Assembly (NCBI GenBank): GCA_039180345.1
Contig: JBCDDK010000008.1
Span: 4,643 to 44,642, forward strand
Reading direction: 5' to 3'
Length of the DNA stretch: 40,000 nt
Source: Cyanobacteria bacterium P01_G01_bin.39
GTDB taxonomy: Bacteria > Cyanobacteriota > Cyanobacteriia > Cyanobacteriales > Xenococcaceae
This document shows, one piece after another, positions 158 through 22,039 of this stretch (position 1 is its first letter; each line of letters starts with the position of its first letter). A model generated the notes under the pieces. That model ran no database searches, had not been told where the DNA came from, and saw only the letters and a list, made by a program, of their open reading frames with translations. The position numbers and the translations under genes were made by a program.

Positions 158-1303
158 ATGAAAAATATGAATAAAAAAGAAATATTAATCATCTTTCCCA
201 ACGAATGGTTAGCTTATACTCCAACAGTTCTTAACATAGTAGCCAAACTAAAAGATTCATTTGAAATTAAGGTTTTGGCAATAGATGATGGACTTTACAA
301 TAATAATAATTTAGTTGCTCAGGAATTTCAATTTATTAAAGTTAATAAAATTGTGCGCCAGCTTGTTAAGTTTATAGATTTGTTTTCATTCAAGCTGGGA
401 AAATTTACTGTAAGAGGAACAAAATTTTATCAATTTGTTAAGATTGCCTTAATTTATTATAATCTCAAGAAAATTTGCCGAGATAACGCAAATAGTGAAA
501 TTATTGCTGTAGATTCTATGGGCTTATTTATTGCCCAGAAGCTATTTAAGAAATGCCATTTTCTATCTTTAGAACCACACAAAGATTATTTATTTAGAAA
601 ATCCGATTTGAGTCGGATAGAATCGGCAATAGCTCATAGCGAAGAACGTTATGATTACCTATTTAAAGAGTCATCCATCAATGCTTTTATTATTCCAAAT
701 TCTCCAATATTTGAGAATGGCTTAGAACCTAAACAATATCCATCCTCACCTTGTCGCGGTATTTTCTTTGGCAATGCTACCCAGAGAAATGGCATTTACT
801 ATTGTCTAGACGCAATACGAAGCTCAGAAGACATTTCAATAACAGTCAAAGGGGCAATGTCTCCAGAAGTGCGAGAAAATATATTTCAAAATTATAGCGA
901 TTTAATTGATTCTGGTCAGCTCGAAATTGATAATACTTATCTTCAACAAGAAGAAATAATTGAATATCTTTCAAGGTTTTGGTTTGGATTTTGCTTTTAT
1001 AATTTTGGATACGTAGATGAAGTGACTCATTTTAACTTTACTTCTGTTCCTTCAGGTAAGATGTTCAATTACTATGCAGCAGGTGTTCCAGTTATTGGCT
1101 CAAATATTTTGGGTTTAAAAAGCGTGAGAGACTTTGATGCAGGAATTTTATTAGACAAACCATCCCCAGAGACAATTTTTCTAGCAATCAAGCAAATATT
1201 AATCGAGCATCAAAAGTATCGCCAGAATTGCTTGAAAGCAGCAGAACATTTTGATTTTGACAAGTCGGTAAACAAGTTTAAAGAGTATCTTCTTCTAAAA
1301 TAA
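158..1303 (+). CDS. putative glycosyltransferase (GT-B-like C-terminal half), family uncertain
   Basis: 381 aa ORF. The C-terminal segment PSGKMFNYYAAGVPVIGSNILGLKSV resembles the nucleotide-sugar-binding end of GT-B/GT4 enzymes. It is the first gene of a co-directional glycan locus. I recognised no canonical EX7E motif. Confidence 0.45.
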   Translation: MKNMNKKEILIIFPNEWLAYTPTVLNIVAKLKDSFEIKVLAIDDGLYNNNNLVAQEFQFIKVNKIVRQLVKFIDLFSFKLGKFTVRGTKFYQFVKIALIYYNLKKICRDNANSEIIAVDSMGLFIAQKLFKKCHFLSLEPHKDYLFRKSDLSRIESAIAHSEERYDYLFKESSINAFIIPNSPIFENGLEPKQYPSSPCRGIFFGNATQRNGIYYCLDAIRSSEDISITVKGAMSPEVRENIFQNYSDLIDSGQLEIDNTYLQQEEIIEYLSRFWFGFCFYNFGYVDEVTHFNFTSVPSGKMFNYYAAGVPVIGSNILGLKSVRDFDAGILLDKPSPETIFLAIKQILIEHQKYRQNCLKAAEHFDFDKSVNKFKEYLLLK

Positions 1304-1438
1304 TTTTACTGTTTTAGAATCAAGAAAAGTTTGTTGTCAAGTGCAGAAAAATCTGAGAAAAATAGCCGTTTTGGCGATAAGTACAATTATCTAATCAAAA
1401 AAGTGGGATATTCCCGTGATTGCTTAAAATAGTATGAC

Positions 1439-2599
1439 ATGAATAGAAATAAAAAAGTTTTGATATGTGGTTACTATGGTTATCATAATCTTGGTGACGA
1501 AGCAATGTTAAGTGGTATTCTCACATTGCTCAAAAAAGTACAACCAGATTTAGTTCCTACTGTCCTATCAAGTAATCCATCCAATACCAAAACGATACAT
1601 TCAATCAAAGCAATTAAACAAGGCGGTAATTTTCTCGACAAATTGCGGAGGCTTTTTCACTATGTGATGAGCGATTACTTCATTCTGGGAGGTGGCGATT
1701 TACTTCGTGATACAGCCAAAAGTTCAATTGCGAATTCCTGGCTTAGTTCGGTACAAAAAGCCATTAAGTTTAAATGTTGTACTATCGTTCTGGGTGTTAG
1801 TGTTGGTGAAATTTTCAAGGATGAAACCAAGAAGTTAATTCCCGAGGTACTTAATCAAGTTGATTATATTGGTGTTAGAGATTTTCAATCGAAGCTCAAG
1901 CTGGAAAATTTAGGAGTTGTGCAAAAAATACATATAGTTAAGGATTTAGCATTAGAAAATTCAGCTAAATATAATTTAAATTTTGACTATTCCCATGAAG
2001 AAAAAAAGCCAATAAATGTGGGAATGGCTGTTCGCAAACTTTCTAACAGAGGTCCGTCTGTTAATCCTCAAACTTATTCTAATGTTGCGATTGAGATAGC
2101 TGCATTCATTGATTTATTGGTAGAAAAGCATGATGTCAAAATTCATATGCTTCCTTTTCAAGCAAGTCAAGTCAGTAGTAGATTGGACAGTGATGATTAT
2201 GCTTGTTCATTGGAGATAGTAAATCTCAGCAATTGTCCAGATAGATTCGTAGTTCACCGCTGTTTTGAATCAGTTGAAGAATATATAGAGATGTCTAGGG
2301 AACTGGATGTTGTGGTTGGCATGCGTTTACATTCTCTAATTCTTGCAGCGGGCATAGGCATTCCAGCTATTGGAATAGAATACGATCCCAAAGTTCGCTA
2401 TTTCATGAATGAAGTTAATCAACTCGAAAATATGGTTCCATTAAATTGTTTAGATAGGCATTGTTTGCTGGCGATGGCTGAAAAAATACTTCAAGATCTA
2501 CCTAATGCTCAAGAAAAGCTAACATCGGGACTAATCACGTACCGCAAAAGTACAGATGAATCAATTAAAACTTTCAAAGAACTATTATCATGCAATTAA
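1439..2599 (+). CDS. polysaccharide pyruvyl transferase family protein (CsaB/WcaK-like)
   Basis: The N-terminus VLICGYYGYHNLGDEAMLSGIL is the typical start of the polysaccharide pyruvyl transferase family. RLHSLILAAGIGIPAIGIEYDPKV lies near the C-terminus. The gene sits among GT genes. Confidence 0.8.
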   Translation: MNRNKKVLICGYYGYHNLGDEAMLSGILTLLKKVQPDLVPTVLSSNPSNTKTIHSIKAIKQGGNFLDKLRRLFHYVMSDYFILGGGDLLRDTAKSSIANSWLSSVQKAIKFKCCTIVLGVSVGEIFKDETKKLIPEVLNQVDYIGVRDFQSKLKLENLGVVQKIHIVKDLALENSAKYNLNFDYSHEEKKPINVGMAVRKLSNRGPSVNPQTYSNVAIEIAAFIDLLVEKHDVKIHMLPFQASQVSSRLDSDDYACSLEIVNLSNCPDRFVVHRCFESVEEYIEMSRELDVVVGMRLHSLILAAGIGIPAIGIEYDPKVRYFMNEVNQLENMVPLNCLDRHCLLAMAEKILQDLPNAQEKLTSGLITYRKSTDESIKTFKELLSCN

Positions 2600-2670
2600 G
2601 AATAAAAAATATTCTTGATAAATAGGGTAAAAAAATTTGAGAACCAGGAATTTACTTAAATTAAATACTA

Positions 2671-3444
2671 ATGTTTAAGATAGCAGTAAAAGAAGCCAAA
2701 TCAGTATTTTATTCTTATCGAAATCAAATCAATATAGCTTTATCTCATTATCCTAAGCTACATTCTAGCGTTAGTGTTTATTTGTATGGATTTAGTAATT
2801 CTAAATTAGTAAATAATCAAACAGATTTAGTAATAGAAGGATTCCCTGGATCAGCTAATAGTTTTGCTGTAAAAGCCTTTCAAATGGCACAGAACAAAGA
2901 ATATAAAATAGCTCATCATTGTCATCATCCTGCTCAAGTAATTTCTGGAATTTATAGAGGTATTCCAACCATATTGTTGATTCGCAAACCTGATGATTGT
3001 ATATTATCTTATACGGTTAGTTCAAATGCCAATATTTTATCTAATGGTTTAAATGAGGGCATAATTATTGATTTGCTACAACAAAATTTAAATAAATATA
3101 TAAATTTTTATTCGACCCTGTATAAATATAAGGATTCATGTGTAATAGGTTTGTTTGACAGAGTAACTCAAAATTTTGGAGAAATAGTTAATTCAGTAAA
3201 TCATAAATACAATACTGATTATGATATTTTCATCCATAATGATGACAATACTAATGCTTGTTTTTCAGAACTAACCAAAAATTTTCGCAATATCTTTAAA
3301 AATAATAGTTTGGAGATGTCAGTCAGAAAACCTTCTTTAAAAAGAAAAGAACTAAAGCAACTAGTGGAGCCTTATCTTATGTCTACATCCTTACATGATT
3401 TGAGAGCTGAAGCTTATGAAATTTATCAAAGTTATAGAGCGTAA
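2671..3444 (+). CDS. sulfotransferase-like protein with degenerate PAPS-binding loop
   Basis: EGFPGSANSFAVKA sits where the 5'-PSB loop (PKSGTT-like) is expected. LLIRKPDDCILSY resembles the 3'-PB motif RxPxDxxxS. The loop lysine is replaced by Gly, so both function and donor are uncertain. Confidence 0.45.
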   Translation: MFKIAVKEAKSVFYSYRNQINIALSHYPKLHSSVSVYLYGFSNSKLVNNQTDLVIEGFPGSANSFAVKAFQMAQNKEYKIAHHCHHPAQVISGIYRGIPTILLIRKPDDCILSYTVSSNANILSNGLNEGIIIDLLQQNLNKYINFYSTLYKYKDSCVIGLFDRVTQNFGEIVNSVNHKYNTDYDIFIHNDDNTNACFSELTKNFRNIFKNNSLEMSVRKPSLKRKELKQLVEPYLMSTSLHDLRAEAYEIYQSYRA

Positions 3445-3554
3445 TTTATAGTCTTCAATAAGAAATATATGAAAAAATTTAAGAATCCCTTTGTTTGTCG
3501 GTTATTGAGTAAATAATCTTAAATTATTGAAATTCATCTTCATTCAGTAAACAT

Positions 3555-4826
3555 GTGATTAAACTAAAAACAGAACTCAAAAAAAGCTCTTTACCAGATG
3601 CTAACACTGTCGAAAAATTAATGGTTCTAGAGCTTTCTGTAGGAGGACATTATCCAGAATACATTGCTCATTTAATTGATCATTGGCAAAAACAGCAGAA
3701 ACCAAGACAGTTAGTGCTGGTGGTATCACCTCTATTTCTAAAGCAACATCGGGATGTAGTAGATTTAGCCAAAAAATATCAACCAGATCAAGTAATCGTA
3801 ATTACTATATCAGCAGCAGAATACGAAAAACTAAAACCATTTGATACAGGTATTAATCGTAATCTTAGAGCATGGCAAGAGTTTCAGCTTTTGCTCAAGT
3901 ATGCCCGAAAATTTCAAGCCAATCATGTATTTATTCCTTATTTTGACACATTACAAATAGCTCTTATTTTTAATAAATCACTTCCGTTCACATACTCAGG
4001 AATATATTTTCGTCCCTCATTTTATTACGACAATCTTGTGGGACACCATTCTTCTCGGCAAGACAAATTCCAGCATTGGCGAGAAAAGATAACTTTATCG
4101 CTAGTGCTAAAAAAACCTGAACTTAAAACGTTATTTTGTCTAGATTCTTGGGCAATTAAGTATATTAATCAGCTTTCTCGTGAATCAAAAGCAGTATATC
4201 TACCAGATCCAGTCCAAATCCATCCCAATTCAGTATCAAACATAGAACAGTTCAAATCAAACTTAGGAATTGAGGCTTCGCGGCAAGTACATCTTTTAGC
4301 TGGTGGTATTGGAAAACGCAAAGGATTGGATAAAATCTTAGATTCAATTTGTTTCCTAAATAGTGAGCTATGTCAAAGATTATGTTTTTTAGTCGTCGGA
4401 CCAATTGAGGAGAGTTACTATCAAGAATGTCTGGAGAAAGTTAGACAACTTACTAGTAAGTTACCTATACAAATAATCTTTAAAAATCAACACATTTTAG
4501 AAACAGAAATTCAAAAATACTTTCAGATTTGCGACGTAGTTTTAGCCCCTTATCAAAGGCATGTGGGAATGAGTGCCATTTTAACTCGTGCTGCGATCGC
4601 TCGAAAGCCAGTGCTAGCTCCAAATTATGGATTGATGGGAGAAATAACCCGCCGTTATCGGTTAGGAATTGCCATAAATTCAACTCAAATTCCAGAAATT
4701 GCTGAGGGGTTGACTAAGTTCTTAACGGAATCTCCAACTACTTATTGTGACTTTGACTTAATGCAGCAATACGCTGAACAAAATACCCCAGAAAAATTTA
4801 CCAGCATCATTTTTCAGCATATCTAA
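3555..4826 (+). CDS. glycosyltransferase-like protein, paralog A of a diverged pair (partner at 20738-22039)
   Basis: GTG start, 423 aa. It shares long blocks with the 20738 gene: ELSVGGHYPEYIAHL, RNLRAWQEF, KYARKxQAxHVF, SGIYFRP, GKRKGL, APYQRHVGMSxIL, ARKPVL and YGLMGEITRRY. The KRKGL...VVG layout resembles the C-terminal half of a GT-B enzyme. Confidence 0.6.
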   Translation: MIKLKTELKKSSLPDANTVEKLMVLELSVGGHYPEYIAHLIDHWQKQQKPRQLVLVVSPLFLKQHRDVVDLAKKYQPDQVIVITISAAEYEKLKPFDTGINRNLRAWQEFQLLLKYARKFQANHVFIPYFDTLQIALIFNKSLPFTYSGIYFRPSFYYDNLVGHHSSRQDKFQHWREKITLSLVLKKPELKTLFCLDSWAIKYINQLSRESKAVYLPDPVQIHPNSVSNIEQFKSNLGIEASRQVHLLAGGIGKRKGLDKILDSICFLNSELCQRLCFLVVGPIEESYYQECLEKVRQLTSKLPIQIIFKNQHILETEIQKYFQICDVVLAPYQRHVGMSAILTRAAIARKPVLAPNYGLMGEITRRYRLGIAINSTQIPEIAEGLTKFLTESPTTYCDFDLMQQYAEQNTPEKFTSIIFQHI

Positions 4827-5786: not shown

Positions 5787-6662
5787 GTGAAATCAAATAT
5801 TATGCCAGTAACAATTAATCAAGATAGACATCAAAGAAGTTATGCCGAAATCAAGAAGACTTACGAACTTGAAAAGAAATTAGCTCGAAAACTCAAACAA
5901 GCATCTAAGAATGAAAGAATCAATTTAAATTTATATACAAAAGTATATGATGAGTTTTTTGATCAACTCCCCGAACATCCTGTTCAAAACCTTAAAGACA
6001 ATCCTCAAGCTACTGCATCAGTAGTCGCTCAATGGATGCCAGTAATAGAGCATTTCTTGCATCCTGAAGCTAAATTTTTGGAAATTGGACCTGGTGACTG
6101 TAGTCTTTCTTTAGAAGTAGCTAAAAGGGTAAAAAAAGTCTACGCTGTCGATGTTTCTAATGAAGTGACAAAAAACATTACCATGCCTCCTAACTTTGAG
6201 CTAGTAATTTCTGATGGTTGCACGGTTCCTGTTGAAGAAAATAGCATCGATATTGCTTATAGTCATCAAATGATGGAACATTTACATCCTGACGATGCTT
6301 TTGAACAGCTTCAGAATATATACAAAGCTCTTGCTCCTGGTGGAGTCTATATTTGTATTACTCCTAATCGTCTTAGCGGACCTCACGATACTTCTAAATT
6401 TTTTGATGACATTGCAACTGGGTGGCATTTGAAAGAATATACTGTTAGTGAACTATACGATTTATTTTGTGAAGCTGGGTTTTCTAAAGTTCGTTACGAC
6501 AAAGTAAAACCTAATGCTCATATCAAATTACCGTTAAACTTAGCGACAGTTTCTGCCTTAAGAGTCTCTGAAATTATTGTAGAAAACTTGCCTGCTTTCT
6601 TAAAAAGAAAACTTTCATTGATGTTAAAGTTTCGAGGTATTACTCTGATTGGTCAGAAATAA
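5787..6662 (+). CDS. class I SAM-dependent methyltransferase
   Basis: Motif I is FLEIGPGDCSLSLEVA, followed by the acidic VYAVDVS and the post-I segment PGGVYICITPN. The ORF-track start is GTG 5787. ATG 5802, preceded by AGGTGA, is a plausible alternative start. Confidence 0.85.
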   Translation: MKSNIMPVTINQDRHQRSYAEIKKTYELEKKLARKLKQASKNERINLNLYTKVYDEFFDQLPEHPVQNLKDNPQATASVVAQWMPVIEHFLHPEAKFLEIGPGDCSLSLEVAKRVKKVYAVDVSNEVTKNITMPPNFELVISDGCTVPVEENSIDIAYSHQMMEHLHPDDAFEQLQNIYKALAPGGVYICITPNRLSGPHDTSKFFDDIATGWHLKEYTVSELYDLFCEAGFSKVRYDKVKPNAHIKLPLNLATVSALRVSEIIVENLPAFLKRKLSLMLKFRGITLIGQK

Positions 6663-6758: not shown

Positions 6759-7907
6759 ATGACAACAAACAAAATATCAGATATGCAAATTGCCTGGCTT
6801 TTACCAAAAATTGGTTTTTTTTGGCAACCAATGTTGAGTGAATTTACCAAGCTTTTTCCCAAAACCAATGTTTTTACAGCTAAATTTCCTAGTTTTGTTA
6901 AAGGATTAGAGAATTCAATTGCAGTCGAAACTATTGGTTCTCCATATCAACTTGGCACAAAAACTCAAGCACCAGGCTATAGCTGTACCATGACTATGGT
7001 ATCGCCAAAAATTGTTTTTCCTTTGATACGCTTTAAACCCAAAGTTATTTTTTCTAATTCTTTTGGTATTTGGACGATCTTTGCTTTATTACTAAAACCC
7101 CTATATAGATGGCGTGTGATTATCGCCTATGAGGGTAGTTCACCAGGAGTAGATTTTGCTAATTCTCCTTTTCGTCTCTGGATGCGCAGGCTAATGATTA
7201 AAGTAGCAGATGCCTGTATTACTAATAGTAAAAGAGGTGAAGCTTATCTTACAAAAGTACTTGACGCTAAGCAAGATCGAGTTTTTGCTTATCCTTATGA
7301 AGTTCCTACTACTGAATCTTTGTCCCATAATTCGAGTCAAGCATTAATTAAATCTAAGCTACAAAGACCAGTATTTCTATTTGTAGGACGCGTGGTTCCT
7401 CGTAAAGGATTGGGTATCCTCCTGAAGGCTTGTAAATTGCTCAAAGATCGAGGCTATGACAACTATACGTTACTAGTGCTAGGAGATGGAGAGGAAAGAG
7501 AAGAGTTGGAAGCTTTTTGCCAAACTCACGAATTAGAAAATGTGGTTGAGTGGAAAGGTTGGATTAGCAATGATAGTTTAAACTCTTATTTTAAAAGTTC
7601 TGATGTATTTATCTTACCAACTTTAGAAGATACTTGGGGAGTTGTAATTCACGAAGCAATGTTATTTAGTAAAGCTATCATTTGCTCTGATGCAGCGGGT
7701 TCATCTGAGTTGGTTAAACATAATTGTAATGGCTATATTTTTCCCTCTCAACAAATAGAAAAGTTAGCTGAATTAATGAGTCAATTTATAGATAATCCCG
7801 ATCTGATTACCCAAATGGGCAAACAATCGCAGCTTCTAATCGCCAATTATACTCCCAAGTCAGCGGCTCAATTCCTGGCGGAAGTAACAGATTCCATCTT
7901 GTCCTAA
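6759..7907 (+). CDS. glycosyltransferase family 4 (GT-B, retaining type)
   Basis: FVGRVVPRKGLGILLKA plus the EX7E-type region EDTWGVVIHEAMLFSKAIICSDAAGSSELV. Confidence 0.85.
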   Translation: MTTNKISDMQIAWLLPKIGFFWQPMLSEFTKLFPKTNVFTAKFPSFVKGLENSIAVETIGSPYQLGTKTQAPGYSCTMTMVSPKIVFPLIRFKPKVIFSNSFGIWTIFALLLKPLYRWRVIIAYEGSSPGVDFANSPFRLWMRRLMIKVADACITNSKRGEAYLTKVLDAKQDRVFAYPYEVPTTESLSHNSSQALIKSKLQRPVFLFVGRVVPRKGLGILLKACKLLKDRGYDNYTLLVLGDGEEREELEAFCQTHELENVVEWKGWISNDSLNSYFKSSDVFILPTLEDTWGVVIHEAMLFSKAIICSDAAGSSELVKHNCNGYIFPSQQIEKLAELMSQFIDNPDLITQMGKQSQLLIANYTPKSAAQFLAEVTDSILS

Positions 7908-8017: not shown

Positions 8018-9163
8018 ATGAATCAAACTTCTATTGCTATTTTCGTTTGGGGTTTAGAAGGAAAAGCAATTGCCAATAATGCAGCCGCAATGTCCCAAGG
8101 GTTCAAAGATTTAGGTATTGAGCAGGTATGGCTAGTATATCTATTTAAAGGTCCTGGTAAAAATGTGGCAGTTCCCCCTGGAGTAACGCTGGTTCCTTTA
8201 GGTATTAGGCGCTCATTTCTCGCTCCTTTATTTTTGGCACAGTTTTTGAGGAAAGAAAAACCAGATGTCCTAATATCTATGCCAACGGTTGTCAATATTC
8301 CTGCAATTATGGGCTGGCTCTTAGCCAGAAGCAGGTCGACTAAGCTTATTCTGAGCGAACACTCAACCATGAGTTATAAGGCTTACGTTGAGTATAAGCA
8401 AGACTTAAGAATGCGCTTGATGCCATGGTTGGCGAGAATTTTTTATCCCCTGGCTGATGGCTTGAGAGCCAATAGCCAACAGGTATTAGACGACTTGCTA
8501 AATAATATTAAAATTCCCATAAAATCAGATTCGGCAACTACTATTACTAATCCAGTCAATATCGAGGCTATTGCCAAATGTGGAGCAGTCAAACCAAGCC
8601 ATCCCTGGTTAGTCAACAAAGATAAGCCAGTTATCCTGAGTGTTGCCAGATTAGCGAAACAAAAAAACTTTCCTTTACTAATTCAGGCATTTGCTATTGT
8701 TCGACAAAAGATTGATGCTCGATTAATCATTGTCGGAGATGGTCCTGAACAAGAAAACTTAACTAATTTGGTGTCTCAACTGGATCTAGAAGAATCTGTT
8801 AGTCTTGCAGGCTTTTCTAACAACCCTTGGAGCTATATGGCAACGTCTGATGTCTTTGCTCTTGCTTCTGAGGAAGAACCTTTTGGTTTAGTTTTGGTAG
8901 AAGCGATGGCTTGTAATTTACCGATAGTAGCTACTGATGCCTTAAGTGGCGGACCTCGTACTATTTTGGAGAGTGGCAAACATGGATTATTAGTTGCCAA
9001 TCAAGATACAGAAGCATTAGCTGACAGCTTGATCCAGATTTTAACTGATGACAACTTACGCGATCGCCTAATTAAAGCGGGAAAAACCAGATGTCAAACT
9101 TATCAGCCAAAAATTATTGCTAAAGAATGGCTGTTGTTTATCAATAGTCTCGACAAAAATTAG
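8018..9163 (+). CDS. glycosyltransferase family 4
   Basis: SVARLAKQKNFPLLIQAF, IIVGDGPE and the EX7E region SEEEPFGLVLVEAMACNLPIVATD. Confidence 0.9.
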   Translation: MNQTSIAIFVWGLEGKAIANNAAAMSQGFKDLGIEQVWLVYLFKGPGKNVAVPPGVTLVPLGIRRSFLAPLFLAQFLRKEKPDVLISMPTVVNIPAIMGWLLARSRSTKLILSEHSTMSYKAYVEYKQDLRMRLMPWLARIFYPLADGLRANSQQVLDDLLNNIKIPIKSDSATTITNPVNIEAIAKCGAVKPSHPWLVNKDKPVILSVARLAKQKNFPLLIQAFAIVRQKIDARLIIVGDGPEQENLTNLVSQLDLEESVSLAGFSNNPWSYMATSDVFALASEEEPFGLVLVEAMACNLPIVATDALSGGPRTILESGKHGLLVANQDTEALADSLIQILTDDNLRDRLIKAGKTRCQTYQPKIIAKEWLLFINSLDKN

Positions 9164-10910: not shown

Positions 10911-11828
10911 ATGATAAGTACCAAAAACAATGACTATCAACAGTTAAAGATATTTCTATCAGATCACAAAATCGTAAATTTTGAGGGAGAAATACCTACT
11001 TGTTCTTTCAAGCAGACTCCAGCAATCACCGCTAATCAATTCTATTTTAATTACATCCAATGGGTAAAAACCTATTTTGATAGTTGTCATAGAGATCCAG
11101 CTTTTCGCGAACGTTGGCTGGCCGTGACAGGTAGTTGGGACAACAAAATAGTAGTAGATATTGGATGTGGTCCTGGAAATCTTTACGCCACACTTCAAGG
11201 AAATCCTCAATTATTGATTGGTATCGACGTAGCCGAAGGCTCTCTAAAGATGGCTGAAAAAATAGGATATACTCCCTTTCTTGCTGATGCTCATGATTTG
11301 CCCCTGAGATCAGAATTCGCCGATATTGTAACTCTCAACGCAGCATTACATCACTGCGAGGATATGAATCGTGTTTTGACAGAGGCAGCACGCTTAGTTC
11401 GTCCTGGAGGAATGCTGGTTATTGATCACGACCCTCAGTTGTCGGCATGGGATTATCGGGGCATTGGTTTGTGGCTATACAAAATACGTTTATCAATAAT
11501 TTATCGCTGGTTTTTAAAAAGTCTAGATATTCCTAAAACTGAAAGACTGACGGCATTAGCAACCGAAATTCATCATAAACCAGGTGCTGGAGTAACTAAA
11601 GAACTGTTCTGGCAAACTTTAAAACCTTTGGGATTTCAAGTCGAAATTTATCCTCACAACAATGCTATAGGTGCTGCTGCGCTTCAAGGAAAATATGGTA
11701 ATCCTCCTCACTGGCGTTATCGAGTGGGTCAACTGTTGTCAGGCATAAATCCCTATTCAGAGTCTTCTGCTTTGTCTCTCATGTGTGTTGCCACACGTCC
11801 GCAGAAAATCAGTCCCAAACCCAGGTAA
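10911..11828 (+). CDS. class I SAM-dependent methyltransferase
   Basis: Motif I is VVDIGCGPGNL, with DIVTLNAALHH and RPGGMLVIDHDP downstream. Confidence 0.85.
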   Translation: MISTKNNDYQQLKIFLSDHKIVNFEGEIPTCSFKQTPAITANQFYFNYIQWVKTYFDSCHRDPAFRERWLAVTGSWDNKIVVDIGCGPGNLYATLQGNPQLLIGIDVAEGSLKMAEKIGYTPFLADAHDLPLRSEFADIVTLNAALHHCEDMNRVLTEAARLVRPGGMLVIDHDPQLSAWDYRGIGLWLYKIRLSIIYRWFLKSLDIPKTERLTALATEIHHKPGAGVTKELFWQTLKPLGFQVEIYPHNNAIGAAALQGKYGNPPHWRYRVGQLLSGINPYSESSALSLMCVATRPQKISPKPR

Positions 11829-11836
11829 ATAATAAT

Positions 11837-13172: not shown

Positions 13173-15230
13173 ATGTTTTCTTTTGGATTTAGCTCTCAGA
13201 AAATTAAGTTAATTTGCTTTTTTTTAATGGGAGTCATTTTGGTATTTTTCTTGCCAACATTGCTCAGTAGCAGAGCAGAAGTATCCACAGCAGTCAATTT
13301 TAAGTTTCCCCCAGGAAGTGTCGTCGATCTGGTTTCAGAGTATGAGGTTATACCCAATGATGGATTAGACGATACTGCCAGAATCCAAAAAGCTTTAAAT
13401 GACTACGCCGATCAAAATCGCATTTTGTATTTAAAAAATGGAGTCTATGATATTTCAGATACTTTGACCTTTGCTGGAGAGCAACGGTTTAATACGCTCC
13501 AGGGACAAAGCGAAGCCAAGACCATTATTCGCTTGCGCGATCGCTCGCCTCTATTTGCCCCTCAAGTAGGGGAGAGAAAACCATTGCTCAACATACCCCA
13601 TAGAGGCAGTGCGGATCGCTTTCAAAATGGGATCTACGACCTTACTTTTGATGTGGGGTCAGATAATCCCATGGCGGATGGACTCTGGTTTATTAGTAAC
13701 AATCAAGGGGGTTTACGAAATGTCACCATCACCTCTGGTGACCAGGAAGGAGTAGGGTTATCTTTGGGCGCAGGTCTTAATGGTCCGATGTTAGCCAAAG
13801 CAATTACCATCGAAGGCTTTGACGTTGGTATTCGCACTGGCAATGCAGTCAATAGTCAAACTTTTGAGGATATTCATCTTAAAAATCAAGGGTCTGCTGG
13901 TATTTATAACGTTCAGCAGGTAATAAATATTAGAAAATTAGTCAGCGAACAACAGTTACCCATTCCCGCCCTAATCAACGGCGACGATCCAGCAAGTGCG
14001 CCCCATTGGTTCGGGTTAGCAACTATTATCGATTCTACCCTCAAGTATACAGGTGAAAATTTTGCTCCCTATGCGATCGCTGCTGTCGGGAATGCCTATG
14101 GCAGGAACGTAGCTATAAAAGGATATAATAATGCCGCATTTATGGATTATGCTAACTTCCGCCAAGGTCTAGTAGACCATGAATTACTTCCTTTGAGAGG
14201 AGTGGGCATTACTGAATGGACAAAATCATATCGGGAAGATTCTCGTACTGATTTGACAAATCGTTTGTTTGACAATGGAATAGACACATCACTTTCATTG
14301 CCAGCTCAAGATACTCCAGACGTACCTTGGGATAAACTTTCTAGGTGGCTCAATGTAGCTGATTTTGCGGTGGGAGATGGTCAGAGTGACGATACTGCCG
14401 CATTTCAAGCTGCAATCAATTCTATGCAGCCTGGAGGTAAAAATGAAGGTAAAACAACGTTATATATCCCAGGCGGCGTCAAATTTCGGCTCAAGGGAGT
14501 AGTAGAAATATCAGGTCCCGTTCGTCGCATCATTGGTCTTGCTGGTCGAGTGCAGGGAACTATTAATGGTGTAACTACAGGAGGATTTCGGATAGTAGAT
14601 TCTGGCAGCAAAGATGCGCCACTGGTTAGATTTGAGCGCATCTCTGGCTTTGGCTCAAATTTTCTGTTGGAGCATCAAAGTAAACGAAAGCTAGCGGTAG
14701 TTAATACTGCTGGCGTAAAAATTGATTCTAATGGCAGGGGTAACTTGTATTTAGAAGATGTGGTGGCTAGTTTTGCCAGTTTTAACAATGCCAAGCAAAG
14801 GATTTGGGCGCGGCAATTCAATACCGAAGGGCGGGGAACTAAAATAACCAACCAAGGAGCCAAGCTATGGATTTTTGGGCTAAAAACTGAAAGATTTGGG
14901 ACTGTTGTGGAAACTTCATCGGGTGGTTTTACCGAAGCAATCGGTGGGTTTATTTATCGCGTTGCCAAAACCGCTGAGGACAATGCTCCCATGTTTGCCA
15001 TTAATAATGCCCAGGCCACTTTTGCTGGTATTGCGGAAATGGATGCTACTCCAGCAGCAGACAGAAATTACTCAACAATTATGTCGGAAACTAGGAATAA
15101 AACCGTAAAAGTAGGAAAACGAGAGAATTTTCCCACTGGTCGCCATAATGGTTCTCGGGTTATTTATCTATATGTTGGAGCAACTCAAAAAGTGCCGACA
15201 AATTCTGATAAAGCTGTAGAGAAATTATAG
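13173..15230 (+). CDS. secreted tandem right-handed beta-helix protein (pectate-lyase-superfamily, GH55-like glycanase candidate)
   Basis: N-terminal signal peptide (LICFFLMGVILVFFLPTLLSSRA/EV). Two copies of the helix-start motif are present: NDGLDDTARIQKALN near aa 62 and GDGQSDDTAAFQAAINS near aa 402. Each is followed by YLKNG/YIPGG. Confidence 0.7.
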   Translation: MFSFGFSSQKIKLICFFLMGVILVFFLPTLLSSRAEVSTAVNFKFPPGSVVDLVSEYEVIPNDGLDDTARIQKALNDYADQNRILYLKNGVYDISDTLTFAGEQRFNTLQGQSEAKTIIRLRDRSPLFAPQVGERKPLLNIPHRGSADRFQNGIYDLTFDVGSDNPMADGLWFISNNQGGLRNVTITSGDQEGVGLSLGAGLNGPMLAKAITIEGFDVGIRTGNAVNSQTFEDIHLKNQGSAGIYNVQQVINIRKLVSEQQLPIPALINGDDPASAPHWFGLATIIDSTLKYTGENFAPYAIAAVGNAYGRNVAIKGYNNAAFMDYANFRQGLVDHELLPLRGVGITEWTKSYREDSRTDLTNRLFDNGIDTSLSLPAQDTPDVPWDKLSRWLNVADFAVGDGQSDDTAAFQAAINSMQPGGKNEGKTTLYIPGGVKFRLKGVVEISGPVRRIIGLAGRVQGTINGVTTGGFRIVDSGSKDAPLVRFERISGFGSNFLLEHQSKRKLAVVNTAGVKIDSNGRGNLYLEDVVASFASFNNAKQRIWARQFNTEGRGTKITNQGAKLWIFGLKTERFGTVVETSSGGFTEAIGGFIYRVAKTAEDNAPMFAINNAQATFAGIAEMDATPAADRNYSTIMSETRNKTVKVGKRENFPTGRHNGSRVIYLYVGATQKVPTNSDKAVEKL

Positions 15231-15277: not shown

Positions 15278-16660
15278 ATGATTAGCAAAAGTAAATCTGG
15301 TCAAATTGCTGCCAATACCGAAATCAAACCAAGTCAGAAAAAAGGTACTATTGCCAACTCTAATCTAATATTATTTGCCTTTGCTACAGCCTTTTTTTCA
15401 CGGATAGTTGATACTTTTGGCGCACCAGCACTAGTTAACTTCACCCATTTTGCAACTGTTCCTCTCGCCTGCGCGATCACCTTACTGACTAGTCAAAATA
15501 GAAATAAAGAGTCTATTAAAACTACTGGCTTAATCATTCGCGGGCTATTTTTGCTATTGAGCATATCTATAGCCAGCGCTATAGTCAACGAAGCAGGGGT
15601 AATTAATGCACTGCTTAGTTTTATGTTATTGTCAGAGCCATTTATCTTTTTAGTAGCTATTATTTATATCCCCTTATCTTGGAACAAATTTATTAACCTA
15701 AAAAAATGGTTTTTTAGATTTTTTACAATTCATCTGTTATTAGTATTTGTTCAGAAATATATCTTAAAAACTGATACTTGGCACTGGATAGGAATGGAGG
15801 GTGCAGATAGAATTCAAGGAGTATTTTTTATCTCTGGTTCAGGTCATGTTGTTGGTTGTTCCGTATCACTAACATTTGCCATATACTACTTTGTACAAGC
15901 CAAAAAATCTCCATTATGGTTAAGAATTGCGTTAGTTCTGTGTGCGCTTAATAATATTATAATTGCTGATGGAAAACAAGTAATACTAACTTTTGCAGTA
16001 GCAATGATTTTGCTACTTTTAGCAAAATTAAATGACATTGTGGTTGCTGCTAAATATATAGTAATAGCAACAATATTAGGCTCCATATTTTGGTGGTGCA
16101 TTGTCAACTTGCCTGCTTTTGACGCTTTTAATACCTGGATCAGACCAGAAATCTATGGTGCCGAAGGTGATGCAACCCTGTTGAAAACAGCAGCTTTTAG
16201 AATTATTCCAACTCATTATGATTCAATTTTGAATTGGTTTTTTGGTTTGGGACCTGGTCATTCAGTCGGACGGTTAGGGGGATGGATGCTACGGCAATAT
16301 GCAGATTTATTAGCACCCTTGGGTTCAACAGTTCATCCTGCTAGCAGAGAAGTTTGGCGAGCAGTAGCCAATAGTTGGTTGGGAAGTCAGTCTAGTATGT
16401 TTTCTCCCCTGTTTGGTTGGGCCGGTATCTGGGGAGATTTAGGATTTTTAGGATTGGCTGCATATTTAAATCTAGGTTTGGTCGTCTGGCAGCGAGTTTG
16501 TGTCAACGATGTCTCCAAGTTTTTCTTGCTAACTGTAGTTGTCTTTGGTCTGATATTTTCCCAGCTAGAAGAACCTGGCTATATGTTGTCTATTGCCTGT
16601 ATTATCGGCATCCAGTATCAGGAATATCGGATTAAACGAAGCAAACATAAATTGCGATAA
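15278..16660 (+). CDS. polytopic membrane protein, O-antigen polymerase/ligase-like (Wzy candidate)
   Basis: 460 aa with about 10-12 hydrophobic spans. A long loop is followed by WFFGLGPGHSVGRLG, which resembles the GxGxG segment of the Wzy/O-antigen ligase family. It sits in a glycan locus. Confidence 0.55.
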   Translation: MISKSKSGQIAANTEIKPSQKKGTIANSNLILFAFATAFFSRIVDTFGAPALVNFTHFATVPLACAITLLTSQNRNKESIKTTGLIIRGLFLLLSISIASAIVNEAGVINALLSFMLLSEPFIFLVAIIYIPLSWNKFINLKKWFFRFFTIHLLLVFVQKYILKTDTWHWIGMEGADRIQGVFFISGSGHVVGCSVSLTFAIYYFVQAKKSPLWLRIALVLCALNNIIIADGKQVILTFAVAMILLLLAKLNDIVVAAKYIVIATILGSIFWWCIVNLPAFDAFNTWIRPEIYGAEGDATLLKTAAFRIIPTHYDSILNWFFGLGPGHSVGRLGGWMLRQYADLLAPLGSTVHPASREVWRAVANSWLGSQSSMFSPLFGWAGIWGDLGFLGLAAYLNLGLVVWQRVCVNDVSKFFLLTVVVFGLIFSQLEEPGYMLSIACIIGIQYQEYRIKRSKHKLR

Positions 16661-16736: not shown

Positions 16737-18167
16737 ATGCCTAATTTTCGTTCGACTTCAAATAGAACCTTAAATAACCTGGGACAAGTATGGTCTAAAG
16801 CCAGGCTTACTCTAGCTGAGTTGGACTCGGTACGCTTCCTGGCTAAATATTGGTCTTATTTTTTAGTAGTCAGCAATGTAGCAGTAATTCTAATCGTAAC
16901 CCTACATCCATATAGCTTTGTTCATCAAGACTATGCCGTTTTAATAATGCGGTTTAAGCGTTTCTTTAATTCCCCTGGTGATATCTATGATCTAATTTCT
17001 AATGTCCTGCTGTTTGTCTTATTAGGATTTGGTTTAGGAAGAATATTGCAGCGGCAATCTGATAGTAAGGTTTTAATCTTAATTATTAGTCTGCTTGTCA
17101 GTACCAACCTCTCTTTAATCGTAGAAATTCTCCAGATGTTTCTACCTAGAAGAACTTCTAGTCTTTGGGATTTACTGGCAAACACAATCGGTGGAGTGGG
17201 CGGCACCATGGCTTTTTTCTTCTGGCAGTCCACCTGGATCAGTCTAAATAGACGTCGGTTGAATCGAAGTAGACTGTCATTGACAGCAGTCAGCTATACC
17301 CTACTGGTATTGTGCTTGATGTTTGCACTCCAGCGCGCCCATAACTTTAGCAACTGGAACCCCAACTTCCCTCTATCGATTGGTAATGAGCCTACAGGCG
17401 ATCGCCCTTGGCAGGGAAGGATCGAGCAGGTTTACTTTGCGACTCATTCGTTGTCTAAAAAGGAAATAGCCCAGACATTCAGCACAGAACATAGCTTAAC
17501 TACGCCTTGGTTCACAGGTTATCAGTTGACGGGAAATGGTGATTATGCCGACCAAAACGGGCGATCGCCAAATTTATCCTGGCAAAAAGTTCCGCCAACC
17601 AAAGACACTCAAGGGATGATATCTCTGAGCCAACAACATTGGTTACTAACACCAGAACCAGCTATAAAGCTAAATCAAGCTCTTAAAAAAACATCTCAAT
17701 TTAGTCTATTGACTACAGTTGCCACCAAAGATACTCACCAAACTGGACCAGCGAGAATTATCTCTCTTTCAGATAGCCCCTTTCGACGCAATCTGACTAT
17801 TGGACAGCAGAATTCTGGAGTAGTAGTCCGTTTGCGAACACCTCTAAGCGGACTCGGACAAAGCAATACCAATCTGACTTTTCCTAATATCTTGGCAGAC
17901 ACCAAGCCCCATCAGTTGCTGTTTAACTTTGATGGTAAAACCTTACAGCTATTTGTTGATCACCCTAAGGAGGTACATACCTTGAACCTATCACCAGCAA
18001 TTCTCTTTTTCCATTTTTTACCAGCTATCGGTATTCGCGGCTTTCAAATTACCCCCACGAATAAATGGATGCTACAGCTAGCCTTTTATGGGCTAATGCT
18101 ATCTCCACCAGCAGCTTTAGTGGTGTTGTCCAAGTTTAACAACACCACGCCAGAAAATACTGCTTAA
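16737..18167 (+). CDS. VanZ-like membrane domain fused to a LamG (concanavalin-A-like) domain
   Basis: The N-terminal half has four or more TM spans and the VanZ-like segment IVEILQMFLPRRTSSLWDLLANTIGGVGG. The C-terminal half has LamG-like strings: GDRPWQGRIEQVYFATHSLSKKEIAQ, TGPARIISLSDSPFRRNLTIGQQ and HQLLFNFDGKTLQLFVD. Confidence 0.65.
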   Translation: MPNFRSTSNRTLNNLGQVWSKARLTLAELDSVRFLAKYWSYFLVVSNVAVILIVTLHPYSFVHQDYAVLIMRFKRFFNSPGDIYDLISNVLLFVLLGFGLGRILQRQSDSKVLILIISLLVSTNLSLIVEILQMFLPRRTSSLWDLLANTIGGVGGTMAFFFWQSTWISLNRRRLNRSRLSLTAVSYTLLVLCLMFALQRAHNFSNWNPNFPLSIGNEPTGDRPWQGRIEQVYFATHSLSKKEIAQTFSTEHSLTTPWFTGYQLTGNGDYADQNGRSPNLSWQKVPPTKDTQGMISLSQQHWLLTPEPAIKLNQALKKTSQFSLLTTVATKDTHQTGPARIISLSDSPFRRNLTIGQQNSGVVVRLRTPLSGLGQSNTNLTFPNILADTKPHQLLFNFDGKTLQLFVDHPKEVHTLNLSPAILFFHFLPAIGIRGFQITPTNKWMLQLAFYGLMLSPPAALVVLSKFNNTTPENTA

Positions 18168-18217: not shown

Positions 18218-19177
18218 ATGAGTAACAACCAAAGCAAATCCCCCAAAGTTAGTATTGGTATTCCCGTATATAACGGAGAGAAATATCTCGAACTAGCTCT
18301 TGATTCATTAATTCAACAGTCCTTTACAGATTTTGAAATCATCATCTGTGATAATGCCTCAACAGATAGAACCGAATCAATTTGTCGTTCTTATCAATCT
18401 CAGGATGAGAGAATTTTCTATTACAGAAATAAGACTAATTTAGGTGCTGCGGGCAATTACAAAAAAGTTTTTCAACTAGCACAAGGAGAGTTTTTCAAAT
18501 GGATGGCTCACGATGATCGCTGTTCTCCCAACTATTTAGCAGAGTGTGTCCAGGCTCTAGAACAAGATCCTGAGATTGTCATGACCTTTCCGCGATTTGA
18601 ATTAATCGATGAAAGCGATCGCACCTATCCCATAGTTAGAAAGAATACCTACCTCACCCCAGAATTAACTATCACTACTAATCCCGAGCGGAATTTTATG
18701 TCCTCTAGTCCTAGTGAACGTTATGGGGAAGTTCTATTTAAAACCACCGAATGTTATGAATTCTTTGGGTTAGCTCCCAGAGAGATTATTGAGCGCACTT
18801 CCCAGCATGATGCTTACTATGGCTCCGACAAGGTACTGCTGTGTGAACTGGCAATGATGGGCAAAATCAAAGAAGTTGCTAACGCCACTGGCTATTTTAG
18901 AATTCATGGTGAGCAGTCTCAATCACTCAAAAGCCATAAGGAGCGCTCTCAATGGATTTCTCCTAATTTATCTTATGGCGTATTTCTATCTCGGGTTAAA
19001 TGCCTCCAGGGTTATTATCACAGTATCTTTGCCTATTCTGTTCCTTTATCAGAGCGCATCAAGTGTTTCTGGACTCTCACTAGTTGGACAATTGATTTAG
19101 GAAACTGGATGTTAATGCTCAACGAAATCTTGCACTTCAAACCCAAAGTTAAACAAGAGAGATTAGGTAGTTCTTAA
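18218..19177 (+). CDS. glycosyltransferase family 2
   Basis: VSIGIPVYNGEKYLELALDSLIQQSFTDFEIIICDNASTDRT plus a WMAHDD (DxD-type) motif. Confidence 0.9.
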   Translation: MSNNQSKSPKVSIGIPVYNGEKYLELALDSLIQQSFTDFEIIICDNASTDRTESICRSYQSQDERIFYYRNKTNLGAAGNYKKVFQLAQGEFFKWMAHDDRCSPNYLAECVQALEQDPEIVMTFPRFELIDESDRTYPIVRKNTYLTPELTITTNPERNFMSSSPSERYGEVLFKTTECYEFFGLAPREIIERTSQHDAYYGSDKVLLCELAMMGKIKEVANATGYFRIHGEQSQSLKSHKERSQWISPNLSYGVFLSRVKCLQGYYHSIFAYSVPLSERIKCFWTLTSWTIDLGNWMLMLNEILHFKPKVKQERLGSS

Positions 19178-20653: not shown

Positions 20654-20737
20654 ATAATAATCAAATTTCCTTAATCCTGCTTTAACCAAGGACACACTGT
20701 CTTTAATCGGTAGCACCTCACCATGTAAAATCTGAGT

Positions 20738-22039
20738 TTGAATACTAAAGGCATGACTTCATTACCCAATTTGCGAGAAGAGCAGCAACACAGTCCCGAT
20801 AGTCAGCGCATTTTGATTTTTGAGTTATCTGTTGGTGGTCATTATCCAGAATATATTGCTCATTTAGTGAGCTTCTGGTGTGAACATAAACTATCAGGTT
20901 GCTTAAATATTGTGGTCGTGCCTGAATTTTTTCAGCGACATCGAGATGTGGTGGCGATCGCTGAACTTAACCAAGCGGATAACGTTAAGTTTATGCCACT
21001 AACGCCAACAGAGCGTTCGGGTCTCAAATCCTATGGTTCAGCTATTAAACGTAATCTAAGAGCCTGGCAGGAATTTAACTTAATAAATAAGTATGCCAGA
21101 AAATTGCAGGCTAGCCATGTTTTTCTGCCTTACCTCGATACGAGGATGCTACCCTTGGCTTTAGGCAGAAGTCTACCCTGCCCCTTTTCTGGTATTTATT
21201 TTCGTCCTACTTTCCACTACCCCAGTTTTGACTCTGGTAATCTGTCTTGGAAAGAAAGGCTACAGCATATTAGAGAAAAAGTAATTTTATCGAGAGTTTT
21301 ACGACAAAAGCAGCTTAAGACTCTTTATAGTCTCGATCCTTTAGCGGTAGAGCAGATTAATCGCCTGGCTCAAGTCCCTAAAGCCAAACCTTCAGCCGAC
21401 CCAGTCCAAACATATCCTGACTCTGACGTAAATTTAGCGGCACTAAAGTCAAAGTTAGGAATTGACCCCTCGCGCCAGGTGCATCTTCTGTTTGGCAACT
21501 TGAATAAGCGTAAAGGTCTAGAACAGGTATTAACCGCGATCGCCTTGATGCGGACTAAAACCGTGCAAAAGCTCTGTCTACTTTTGGTTGGTTCGATGTC
21601 TGAAGAAAATTATCGCAAGTTTCAATTACAAAAAACACAGCTTACTAAATCGCAACCCGTTGAGATCATCGATCACAATCAATATGTTCCTGAACCCGAT
21701 ATTCAAAATTACTTTGCATTAGCTGACGTAATTCTGGCTCCCTACCAACGGCATGTAGGCATGAGTGGAATTTTAAACCGCGCAGCAGTAGCCAGAAAGC
21801 CTGTGTTATCTACTGATTACGGTTTGATGGGAGAAATTACTCGTCGCTATCAGCTCGGTTTGACAGTCGACTCGAGTAATCCTCAGCAGATTGCTCAAGG
21901 ATTAAGTAAATTTTTAGAGACATCTACCTCACAGGATTGCAGCCACCCCAAGATGGCTGCTTTTGCCAGTCAAAATTCAGTTACCAAGTTTACCACTACT
22001 ATTTTCCAAGACTTAGGATTTACCAGTTGGCAAAAATAG
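20738..22039 (+). CDS. glycosyltransferase-like protein, paralog B of the diverged pair (partner at 3555-4826)
   Basis: Shares the same blocks as the 3555 gene: ELSVGGHYPEYIAHL, RNLRAWQEF, SGIYFRP, NKRKGL, APYQRHVGMSGIL, ARKPVL and YGLMGEITRRYQLG. The ORF-track start is TTG 20738, with ATG 20753 as an alternative. Confidence 0.6.
   Translation: MNTKGMTSLPNLREEQQHSPDSQRILIFELSVGGHYPEYIAHLVSFWCEHKLSGCLNIVVVPEFFQRHRDVVAIAELNQADNVKFMPLTPTERSGLKSYGSAIKRNLRAWQEFNLINKYARKLQASHVFLPYLDTRMLPLALGRSLPCPFSGIYFRPTFHYPSFDSGNLSWKERLQHIREKVILSRVLRQKQLKTLYSLDPLAVEQINRLAQVPKAKPSADPVQTYPDSDVNLAALKSKLGIDPSRQVHLLFGNLNKRKGLEQVLTAIALMRTKTVQKLCLLLVGSMSEENYRKFQLQKTQLTKSQPVEIIDHNQYVPEPDIQNYFALADVILAPYQRHVGMSGILNRAAVARKPVLSTDYGLMGEITRRYQLGLTVDSSNPQQIAQGLSKFLETSTSQDCSHPKMAAFASQNSVTKFTTTIFQDLGFTSWQK

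Follow-up and report, generated by a model that had tools for sequence, protein, structure and literature searches.

A candidate sulfated-glycan assembly locus of cyanobacteria with a PglK-like ABC half-transporter and a WaaL/Wzy-fold membrane protein

In Maeda et al. 2021 (PMC8205485), sulfated polysaccharides among bacteria are described as largely confined to cyanobacteria and of industrial interest, and sulfotransferases are surveyed within exopolysaccharide (EPS) gene clusters of the Wzx/Wzy type or the ABC type. A 2026 paper in the same line of research names the xss cluster of Synechocystis sp. PCC 6803, located on pSYSM, as the first elucidated system, the others being predicted only, and states that cyanobacterial EPS genes are often dispersed over the genome (PMC13125312). 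Loss of the sulfotransferase XssA in Synechocystis abolishes synechan production altogether (PMC8205485, PMC13125312), which fits sulfation as an on-pathway step. The xss/synechan system is the sole genetically defined biosynthetic system, and we compare with it a run of 17 genes (158..22039) in a 40,000-nucleotide stretch of contig JBCDDK010000008.1, the whole of which is called the window below. Our analysis supports a real cyanobacterial glycan-assembly locus with sulfation capacity and with pyruvyl transferase and methyltransferase genes. Judged from its sequences, it represents a new form of the cyanobacterial unit for sulfated polysaccharides that had been predicted before, neither classical Wzx/Wzy nor xss-like at the protein level, and would stand as a second, differently built family.

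The resemblance to xss lies in gene content. Both systems place several sulfotransferases among ~8–10 glycosyltransferases (GTs) that include GT26, GT4 and GT2 members, both keep the outer-membrane exporter outside the cluster, and in both sulfation presumably takes place on the lipid-linked unit (PMC8205485 for xss). A BLAST comparison of the pSYSM xss region with all locus proteins returned only generic GT4/GT2 similarity and a 31% identical match of the locus GT26 to XssN, with no match to XssA, XssE, XssF (Wzy), XssH (Wzx), XssK or XssP; tblastn of the locus sulfotransferase, o05, against all PLSDB plasmids did not find pSYSM. The xss cluster possesses a Wzx (XssH), an XssF-type Wzy, the XssK polysaccharide co-polymerase and the XssP primer, which the locus is without, whereas the locus possesses a PglK-like ABC half-transporter, a pyruvyl transferase, two methyltransferases, a β-helix enzyme and a VanZ-LamG protein, which xss is without. 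The XssQRS regulators were not seen in the stretches examined; the locus GT26 carries a cyclic di-GMP (c-di-GMP)-binding domain instead. The comparison with xss had been proposed in the initial annotation, which had been made from the window letters alone; it shows no XssA, XssE, XssF or XssH ortholog in the window. By class alone, the locus can be likened to the ABC-type cyanobacterial EPS clusters that combine EPS machinery with sulfotransferases and are genome-predicted (PMC8205485, Fig. 4 supplement 1, and PMC13125312).

The gene run does not begin at the edge of the window. A public contig of 13.2 kb, L001, shares 9.2 kb with the window, identical throughout, and adds three co-directional genes on the 5′ side: a GT26, an ABC half-transporter and an Stf0-type sulfotransferase. 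The cluster therefore begins at least 3.9 kb 5′ of the window and, with these genes counted, comprises at least 20 genes over ~26 kb. Three of the encoded proteins have a sulfotransferase fold, and ten are glycosyltransferases, nine of them solid and one weak. The initial annotation had set the locus at 158–22039; the gene run stands, and the 5′ boundary falls, since window positions 1–96 are the end of a sulfotransferase gene. The upstream genes with known coordinates and the core genes within the window are as follows.

L001 2-1237 (L002 ortholog 1305-2576), co-directional with the window genes: GT26 WecB/TagA/CpsF (WecG/TagA) transferase with an MshEN-type tail, 411 residues, complete (TIGR00696 170.6 bits, cut-off 69)
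L001 3186-4034, with its last 31 codons at window 1..96, plus strand: Stf0-type sulfotransferase, the third sulfotransferase-fold protein (PF09037, E 3.7e-15); the window part translates to the C-terminus of the L001 gene
4840..5721, plus strand: o05, sulfotransferase dependent on 3′-phosphoadenosine 5′-phosphosulfate (PAPS), core gene (PF00685, E 1.3e-11; three PAPS-binding motifs)
9347..10567, plus strand: o09, GT4, core gene (PF00534, E 2.1e-28)
15278..16660, plus strand: o13, polytopic membrane protein of predicted WaaL/Wzy fold, core gene

The ABC gene encodes a fused ABC_membrane and ABC_tran half-transporter of 577 residues. Among NCBIfam models it ranks PglK first (2.6e-89, 300 bits against a cut-off of 1000), ahead of MsbA (273 bits) and HepA (258 bits), all below cut-off, and its best half-transporter in the PDB is PglK 5c73 (E 6e-72, residues 5–563). 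The fused transporter, together with a WaaL/Wzy-fold protein as a core gene, sets the locus apart from the classical ABC-transporter pathway (Wzm/Wzt, KpsM/KpsT), in which an ABC-2 type permease and its nucleotide-binding protein are separate and the cluster has no Wzy or WaaL-fold polymerase. No Pfam match to Wzx (Polysacc_synt families, MOP superfamily) was found in the 24 window ORFs (open reading frames) and the three upstream genes, and neither a priming phosphoglycosyl transferase (Bac_transf or WecA type), nor a polysaccharide co-polymerase (Wzc), nor an outer-membrane polysaccharide exporter (Wza) was found in the window or L001. The initial annotation had rightly noted the absence of the priming transferase, Wzx and Wza/Wzc from the window, and had read this as a classical Wzx/Wzy locus with its flippase elsewhere, to be sought by inspecting the flank for wzx. 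That reading was not supported: the 3.9 kb upstream hold an ABC half-transporter instead of Wzx, and it is this exporter that recurs in related loci.

We assigned the ORFs of 50 cyanobacterial loci with an o05 ortholog to the window proteins, counting o09 and o13 where the flank reached 6 kb or more (n = 33) and the ABC exporter where the upstream flank reached 8 kb or more (n = 32). Downstream of the sulfotransferase, o09 is present in 27 of 33 loci, mostly at 57–63% identity and at up to 96% in the closest relatives, and o13 in 29 of 33; upstream, on the same strand, the ABC exporter is present in 18 of 32. The conserved core is the ABC exporter, the sulfotransferase o05, the GT4 o09 and o13. 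Two complete genomes, those of Altericista sp. CCNU0014 and Acaryochloris marina, have it as a compact operon with the ABC exporter first and o13 last, the interior holding three or four sulfotransferases with GT2 and GT4 genes. Cultured carriers include these two as well as Nodosilinea nodulosa PCC 7104, Leptolyngbya sp. PCC 7375 and Hyella patelloides, and at least about 50 cyanobacterial species-level genomes carry the family of the locus. We found no paper characterising the ABC exporter–o05–o09–o13 cassette in a literature search. In Altericista and Acaryochloris marina a giant protein (1592–2281 residues; CBM6/CBM35, malectin, TIG) also precedes the cassette on the same strand (L084 1-1285, L085 1-1675), which may be a glycan-binding or glycan-processing partner.

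The position of the ABC exporter is occupied by a Wzx (Polysacc_synt_3, 1e-95) in two loci, L053, from a Nostocales metagenome-assembled genome (MAG), and L025, neither of which has an ABC exporter within the flank available; an XssH query among the related cyanobacterial loci matched only these two. It is mainly because ABC exporter and Wzx alternate that we give the ABC exporter the role of flippase and place o13 after flipping. A crude hydropathy scan found two polytopic proteins per examined locus, the flippase candidate and o13, to which the window and the related locus L086 add the VanZ-LamG protein. Wzc-like genes adjoin L002, L036 and L043 only, and XssP-like primers are absent from all cyanobacterial loci and present only in the non-cyanobacterial L046, L051 and L052.

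These data bear on whether the locus could still be a classical xss/synechan-type Wzx/Wzy locus for sulfated EPS, with Wzx, primer and Wza/Wzc encoded elsewhere and an ABC exporter unrelated to flipping, which might for instance serve a different product. Such a locus would suit the o13 fold, which is common to Wzy and WaaL, the Wzx of L053 and L025, the Wzc-like gene beside L002, the GT26 (XssN), GT4s, GT2s and two sulfotransferases that xss too possesses, and the dispersal of cyanobacterial EPS genes (PMC13125312). It is difficult to reconcile with a window and 3.9 kb of upstream sequence free of Wzx, with an ABC exporter inside the operon and syntenic in over half of the loci counted, with the lack of that exporter in the flanks available for the two Wzx loci, and with the failure of o05, o03, the Stf0-type protein and o13 to match XssA, XssE or XssF by BLAST, or of o05 to find pSYSM by tblastn. 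We regard it as distinctly unlikely.

The core membrane protein o13 belongs to a dark family. It has no Pfam or NCBIfam family, and the Pfam Wzy_C/O-antigen ligase model does not match even at E 5; ten distant relatives match no membrane-protein family in Pfam, and a search of the PDB with the family sequence profile retrieved no chain up to E 10. The family numbers 433 representatives (E ≤ 1e-3 among 1.84 billion), is mostly cyanobacterial, well conserved and annotated 'hypothetical', and includes a distant member that carries a GT4 domain as a fusion. The AlphaFold (AF2) model of o13 (predicted local distance difference test, pLDDT, 80.8; predicted template modelling score, pTM, 0.83) has a sole significant fold match in the PDB, the WaaL O-antigen ligase 7tpg_B (E 7e-5, probability 1.0, template modelling score, TM, 0.54/0.60); the runner-up stands at E 0.2 and TM 0.12. 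With the sequence profile and Pfam both without a match, it is the predicted fold that ties o13 to WaaL. The model supports a WaaL/Wzy-superfamily fold and makes o13 a candidate polymerase or ligase, which are indistinguishable at the fold level. The Wzy-like membrane protein proposed earlier is thereby upheld at the level of the fold; o13 has no match to XssF or Pfam, and WaaL is its only fold match.

A PglK-like exporter and a WaaL-fold protein together recall two described pathways. Like those built around Campylobacter PglK and Helicobacter Wzk, the locus combines a half-transporter with fused transmembrane and nucleotide-binding domains, GT4s resembling PglJ/PglH and a periplasmic-face enzyme of the WaaL fold; unlike them, it falls far below the PglK cut-off (300 of 1000 bits) and contains no PglB-type oligosaccharyltransferase, and its sulfotransferases, pyruvyl transferase and c-di-GMP-binding GT26 find no counterpart there. 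The Helicobacter pylori O-antigen route consists of Wzk plus WaaL. By analogy, the glycan could be completed in the cytoplasm, flipped en bloc by the ABC exporter and ligated unpolymerised by o13 to lipid A-core or another conserved acceptor, giving a sulfated O-antigen-like or otherwise anchored glycan. A sulfated O-antigen-like product is a serious rival, because the sole fold match of o13 is a ligase and o13 is unusually conserved for a polymerase; being far better conserved than the neighbouring glycosyltransferases, it suits a constant acceptor more than a serotype-specific polymerase. A PglK/Wzk-like exporter, ~10 glycosyltransferases that could make a long non-repeating chain, and a hypervariable middle resembling O-antigen loci all accord with this route. 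Against it, o13 is without a Pfam Wzy_C/O-antigen ligase match even at the permissive threshold above, and the c-di-GMP domain, Wzc-like neighbours and exported β-helix enzyme are typical of EPS, not of lipopolysaccharide; the WaaL match may also not discriminate, the presence of Wzy structures in the PDB set searched being unconfirmed. On this evidence we judge en-bloc ligation unlikely, although it deserves to be taken seriously.

In another reading o13 would be a PglL/PilO-like oligosaccharyltransferase, with pilins or S-layer proteins as acceptors of the flipped, sulfated oligosaccharide. The WaaL/Wzy_C fold is common to PglL-type transferases, the exporter is PglK-like, and o08 resembles PglJ (2.8e-47, its top NCBIfam match) and PglH (2e-27), in both cases below threshold. 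These Pgl matches amount to generic GT4 and ABC similarity far under the equivalog cut-offs, a target protein or pilin gene is absent from the locus, and the β-helix enzyme and Wzc-like neighbours point to a polymer. Protein O-glycosylation accordingly seems to us very improbable.

Regulation may enter at the GT26. Both its domains score above cut-off, the C-terminal MshE-related c-di-GMP-binding domain with 61.2 bits (NF053729, cut-off 38), and the tail contains four KLGxILV...L...L..Q-type repeats kept in the L002 ortholog. An MshE-related C-terminal domain above the NCBIfam cut-off, with weak similarity to the NfrB C-terminus, likens the protein to NfrB-type c-di-GMP-activated transferases; unlike NfrB, whose catalytic domain is a GT2, the locus protein has a GT26 (WecG/TagA) catalytic domain, and its c-di-GMP binding is predicted. 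We infer that c-di-GMP controls the GT26 as the putative first committed transferase.

Taken together, a model for the locus emerges that we hold with moderate confidence: the locus would make a sulfated, probably also pyruvylated and methylated, heteroglycan on a lipid carrier, as an extracellular or capsular polysaccharide, with an ABC exporter in place of Wzx. Assembly would take place on the cytoplasmic side of the inner membrane, with polyprenyl diphosphate as the carrier, the GT26 acting early on the lipid-linked primer under c-di-GMP gating and eight or nine further glycosyltransferases (GT4, GT2, GT8) extending the unit. Up to three sulfotransferase-fold proteins, the pyruvyl transferase and two methyltransferases would decorate it, and would do so before export, since PAPS, phosphoenolpyruvate and S-adenosylmethionine (SAM) are cytoplasmic donors. 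The PglK-type half-transporter would replace Wzx in flipping the lipid-linked glycan; at the outer face o13 would polymerise it, polymerisation being favoured over ligation, and the exported β-helix protein o12 may trim or modify the polymer. Priming transferase and outer-membrane export proteins would be encoded elsewhere. We favour EPS or capsule because of the c-di-GMP domain, the Wzc-like neighbours, the β-helix enzyme and, in L053, the occurrence of o13 together with a Wzx.

Several observations weigh against this model. The o13 proteins are 50–78% identical across orders, which is unusually conserved for a Wzy, and the structure that o13 matched is a ligase, WaaL, not a polymerase. In 14 of the 32 loci no ABC exporter occurs within 10 kb, and the substrate of PglK-like half-transporters is not assignable from sequence alone. 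With no priming enzyme, outer-membrane exporter or co-polymerase in the window, released EPS, capsule, O-antigen and protein glycan are all possible products. All matches to named equivalogs lie below cut-off (PglK as above; CsaB, 160 of 213 bits), and for every locus gene and ortholog the roles proposed derive from gene content and comparison.

A broader proposal can be put forward tentatively, as a possibility that we think more likely wrong than right: the ABC exporter–o05–o09–o13 set would be a widespread, uncharacterised cyanobacterial route to sulfated surface glycans, in which an ABC exporter can replace Wzx as the partner of a Wzy-like protein, a sulfated element made by o05 and o09 is recognised by o13, and, in some lineages, c-di-GMP gates the pathway via GT26-MshEN. 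If the model of the locus given above is right, the ABC exporter, sulfotransferases, glycosyltransferases and o13 would form a compact cassette transferable between hosts, the dark o13 family would gain a function, and the loci compared would offer a natural test of whether an ABC flippase and a Wzx can substitute for each other. Nothing is overturned by the locus, as Wzx/Wzy- and ABC-type EPS clusters bearing sulfotransferases are already genome-predicted (PMC8205485); it would be a useful second model for sulfated glycan synthesis, and the existence of such loci is unsurprising to specialists.

Sulfation capacity centres on o05, which matches PF00685 with 44.8 bits against a cut-off of 22. 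Its motifs YPKSGTHLL, IYRDLRDVAVSH and FRKGAKGTIGGWK are invariant in the o05 family and represent the 5′-phosphosulfate-binding (5′-PSB, PKxGT), 3′-phosphate-binding (3′-PB, RDxRDxxVS) and C-terminal RKGxxGxWK elements. Orthologs 60–92% identical occur in ~50 cyanobacterial loci from Nostocales, Leptolyngbyaceae, Acaryochloris, Pleurocapsales and many MAGs, and the further sulfotransferases that related loci encode resemble XssA or XssE, with 24–29% identity. Remoter o05 relatives (28–53% identical) are found in other phyla, many near glycosyltransferase homologs. Relatives 30–36% identical occur in Bacillus-group genomes (L063, L067, L068, L070, L073–L075) and on Priestia megaterium plasmids (H1–H6), often in two or three copies adjoining GT2 genes, which hints at sulfated glycans outside cyanobacteria.

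The second sulfotransferase-like protein, o03, is more divergent. It has no Pfam match and only 10 homologs among 5.8 billion proteins, and the family motifs TDLVIEGFPxSANSF and LLIRxPxDAxxSY resemble the sulfotransferase 5′-PSB and 3′-PB. The family profile finds SULT chains in the PDB weakly (E 0.005), sulfotransferases making up 10 of 14 matches, and the top 50 PDB matches of its AlphaFold model (pLDDT 82.6) are all PAPS sulfotransferases (best E 5.5e-4, TM 0.44–0.50); an hhalign comparison of the o03 and o05 families was not significant (probability 1.6%). The model supports a sulfotransferase fold for o03. Its activity as a sulfotransferase is uncertain because the window protein has a glycine (FPGSANSF) where the 5′-PSB lysine is usual; the homologs have Arg, Gly or Ser there. 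The degenerate second sulfotransferase of the initial annotation is therefore retained by its modelled fold and weakened at the PAPS lysine and by the lack of a Pfam match.

The rarity of o03 among relatives is part of a mosaic. The following genes differ in composition from much of the remaining window.

158..1303, plus strand: o01, possible GT-B-type glycosyltransferase, weak (Glycos_transf_1, E 4e-4, 20.3 bits, cut-off 26.4); GC content 31.7%; accessory block
1439..2599, plus strand: o02, CsaB-like polysaccharide pyruvyl transferase (PF04230, E 8.2e-37; motif GYYGYHNLGDEAM); accessory block
2671..3444, plus strand: o03, divergent protein of sulfotransferase fold by model and motifs; GC 28%; accessory block
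5787..6662, plus strand: o06, class I SAM methyltransferase (Methyltransf_11, E 3.9e-13); GC 34.6%

These four genes have a GC content of 28–35%, much of the remaining window ~40–45%, and are absent from the syntenic relatives L002–L004; o01 also found no NCBIfam match, nor any relative in a GTDB genome scan. Only 2 of the 20 HIP1 sites of the window lie in its first 9.1 kb. The break in GC and HIP1 suggests that part of the 5′ region (window 1–9100) was recently acquired, and by the same comparison the pyruvyl transferase, o03 and o06 are a lineage-specific accessory add-on outside the conserved system. The interval between the ABC exporter and o05 varies even among close relatives; that of L006 (85% sulfotransferase identity) is occupied by a GT61, a flavoprotein, a further sulfotransferase and unknown proteins. 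In the closest MAG, L005, o05, o08 and o09 are 91–97% identical and o07 48%. The order of the o11–o16 block is kept in L086. In the sequences compared, gene content around the core varies like that of a serotype locus. The unusually rich set of decorations that had been proposed is present as genes, and it is not conserved, with the pyruvyl transferase, o03 and one methyltransferase (o06) falling in the foreign accessory block.

The pyruvyl transferase belongs to PF04230 (128 bits, cut-off 25), and CsaB is its best NCBIfam match (TIGR03609, 160 bits) below the equivalog cut-off of 213. The Gram-positive CsaB/TagA pair makes pyruvylated N-acetylmannosamine on a lipid-linked disaccharide. Like the CsaB and TagA secondary cell wall polymer system, the locus has a PF04230 pyruvyl transferase and a TagA/WecG transferase in one operon; unlike it, the locus gene misses the CsaB cut-off, is accessory and absent from the syntenic relatives examined, and neither a gene for an LCP ligase nor one for an SLH-domain protein was seen.

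The remaining genes of the run are these.

3555..4826, plus strand: o04, GT4, ending 13 bp 5′ of o05 (PF00534, E 1.3e-9)
6759..7907, plus strand: o07, GT4, variable position (PF00534, E 1.6e-37)
8018..9163, plus strand: o08, GT4 (PF00534, E 1.4e-46)
10911..11828, plus strand: o10, class I SAM methyltransferase (Methyltransf_11, E 2.2e-19)
11783..13018, plus strand: o11, GT4, listed start GTG (PF00534, E 2.8e-28)
13173..15230, plus strand: o12, exported right-handed β-helix protein (PF12708, E 1.5e-16, two stretches)
16737..18167, plus strand: o14, VanZ-like membrane domain fused to a LamG/concanavalin-like domain (PF04892, E 1.2e-12; PF13385, E 2.7e-8)
18218..19177, plus strand: o15, GT2 (PF00535, E 1e-31), in equivalent position in L086
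19568..20653, plus strand: o16, GT8 (PF01501, E 1.9e-34), in equivalent position in L086
20738..22039, plus strand: o17, GT4, last of the run (PF00534, E 1.2e-15)

In L002–L004, orthologs of o04 occur at the equivalent position (57–60% identical), along with orthologs of o10 (68–73%) and o11 (76–80%). The true o11 start is probably a later codon, as the GTG start overlaps o10 by 46 nt and the orthologs are ~9 residues shorter. The o12 N-terminus contains a hydrophobic segment, ...LICFFLMGVILVFFLPTLLSSRA/EV, and homologs are present in L002, L003 and L086; o12 is a candidate glycanase, lyase or epimerase. In L086, o14 likewise follows o13 directly, and o17 is absent, o16 being followed there by housekeeping genes; membership in the locus is least certain for o17 among the 17 genes.

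All 17 ORFs lie on the plus strand, spaced by 13–390 bp with the o10/o11 overlap as the only one, and we regard them as intact because their lengths agree with those of homologs in related loci. Much of what had been read from the letters alone stands: 17 co-directional genes; a clear sulfotransferase, given PF00685, YPKSGTHLL and two further PAPS motifs in o05; the pyruvyl transferase, with its quoted motif in place; two class I methyltransferases, both Methyltransf_11; and a secreted β-helix candidate, given PF12708 and a signal-like N-terminus. Of nine GT-like proteins, eight score above the Pfam curated cut-off and the ninth, o01, only below it. The host is a cyanobacterium, judging by the excess of the HIP1 octamer GCGATCGC (20 observed, 0.09 expected in the window) and by the closest o05 relatives, which come from cyanobacterial MAGs (92% and 85% identical).

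Promoter and terminator scans of the window gave results at or below chance, with no terminator-like site between genes, and an Rfam scan of the window returned zero matches. The largest intergenic gaps contain tandem repeats, AGCCATA x14.3 (10649–10748), AGCTAAT x6.7 (19367–19413) and GGAGACAA x4.6 (9212–9248), which resemble cyanobacterial STRR (short tandemly repeated repetitive) heptamers and might mark transcription-unit boundaries or be length-variable.

Beginning 47 bp past o17, a convergent hybrid polyketide synthase/nonribosomal peptide synthetase (PKS/NRPS) cluster occupies 22086–36074 on the minus strand.

32187-36074, minus strand: DH-FkbM methyltransferase-ACP
27547-32187, minus strand: KS-AT-KR-ACP
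25822-27444, minus strand: TubC_N docking-C
25066-25776, minus strand: Asp/Glu racemase
22086-25073, minus strand: A-PCP-TE

As the first protein opens with a DH domain, the loading module or the first KS module may be encoded elsewhere. The glycosyltransferases and sulfotransferases of the locus might decorate the lipopeptide or polyketide of this cluster, with the ABC protein exporting that product. The locus has NRPS/PKS genes as direct neighbours in the window, in L002 (downstream) and in L003 (immediately upstream of the ABC gene), and cyanobacterial NRPS clusters often include a fused ABC exporter. Their position and orientation differ from case to case, the close relative L086 has housekeeping genes at this place, ~40 other loci with the core are without NRPS/PKS genes within 10 kb, and the WaaL/Wzy-fold protein and GT26 indicate polyprenol-linked chemistry. 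We consider this explanation scarcely credible; functional coupling of the NRPS/PKS genes to the locus was rejected as their adjacency is not conserved, and so was membership of the ABC exporter in the NRPS cluster, as NRPS-free loci too have this exporter in synteny with the glycan core. Past the cluster, cysteinyl-tRNA synthetase and PD40 (WD40-like β-propeller) genes at 37635–39071 (plus strand) and 39094–39756 (minus strand) form an ordinary flank.

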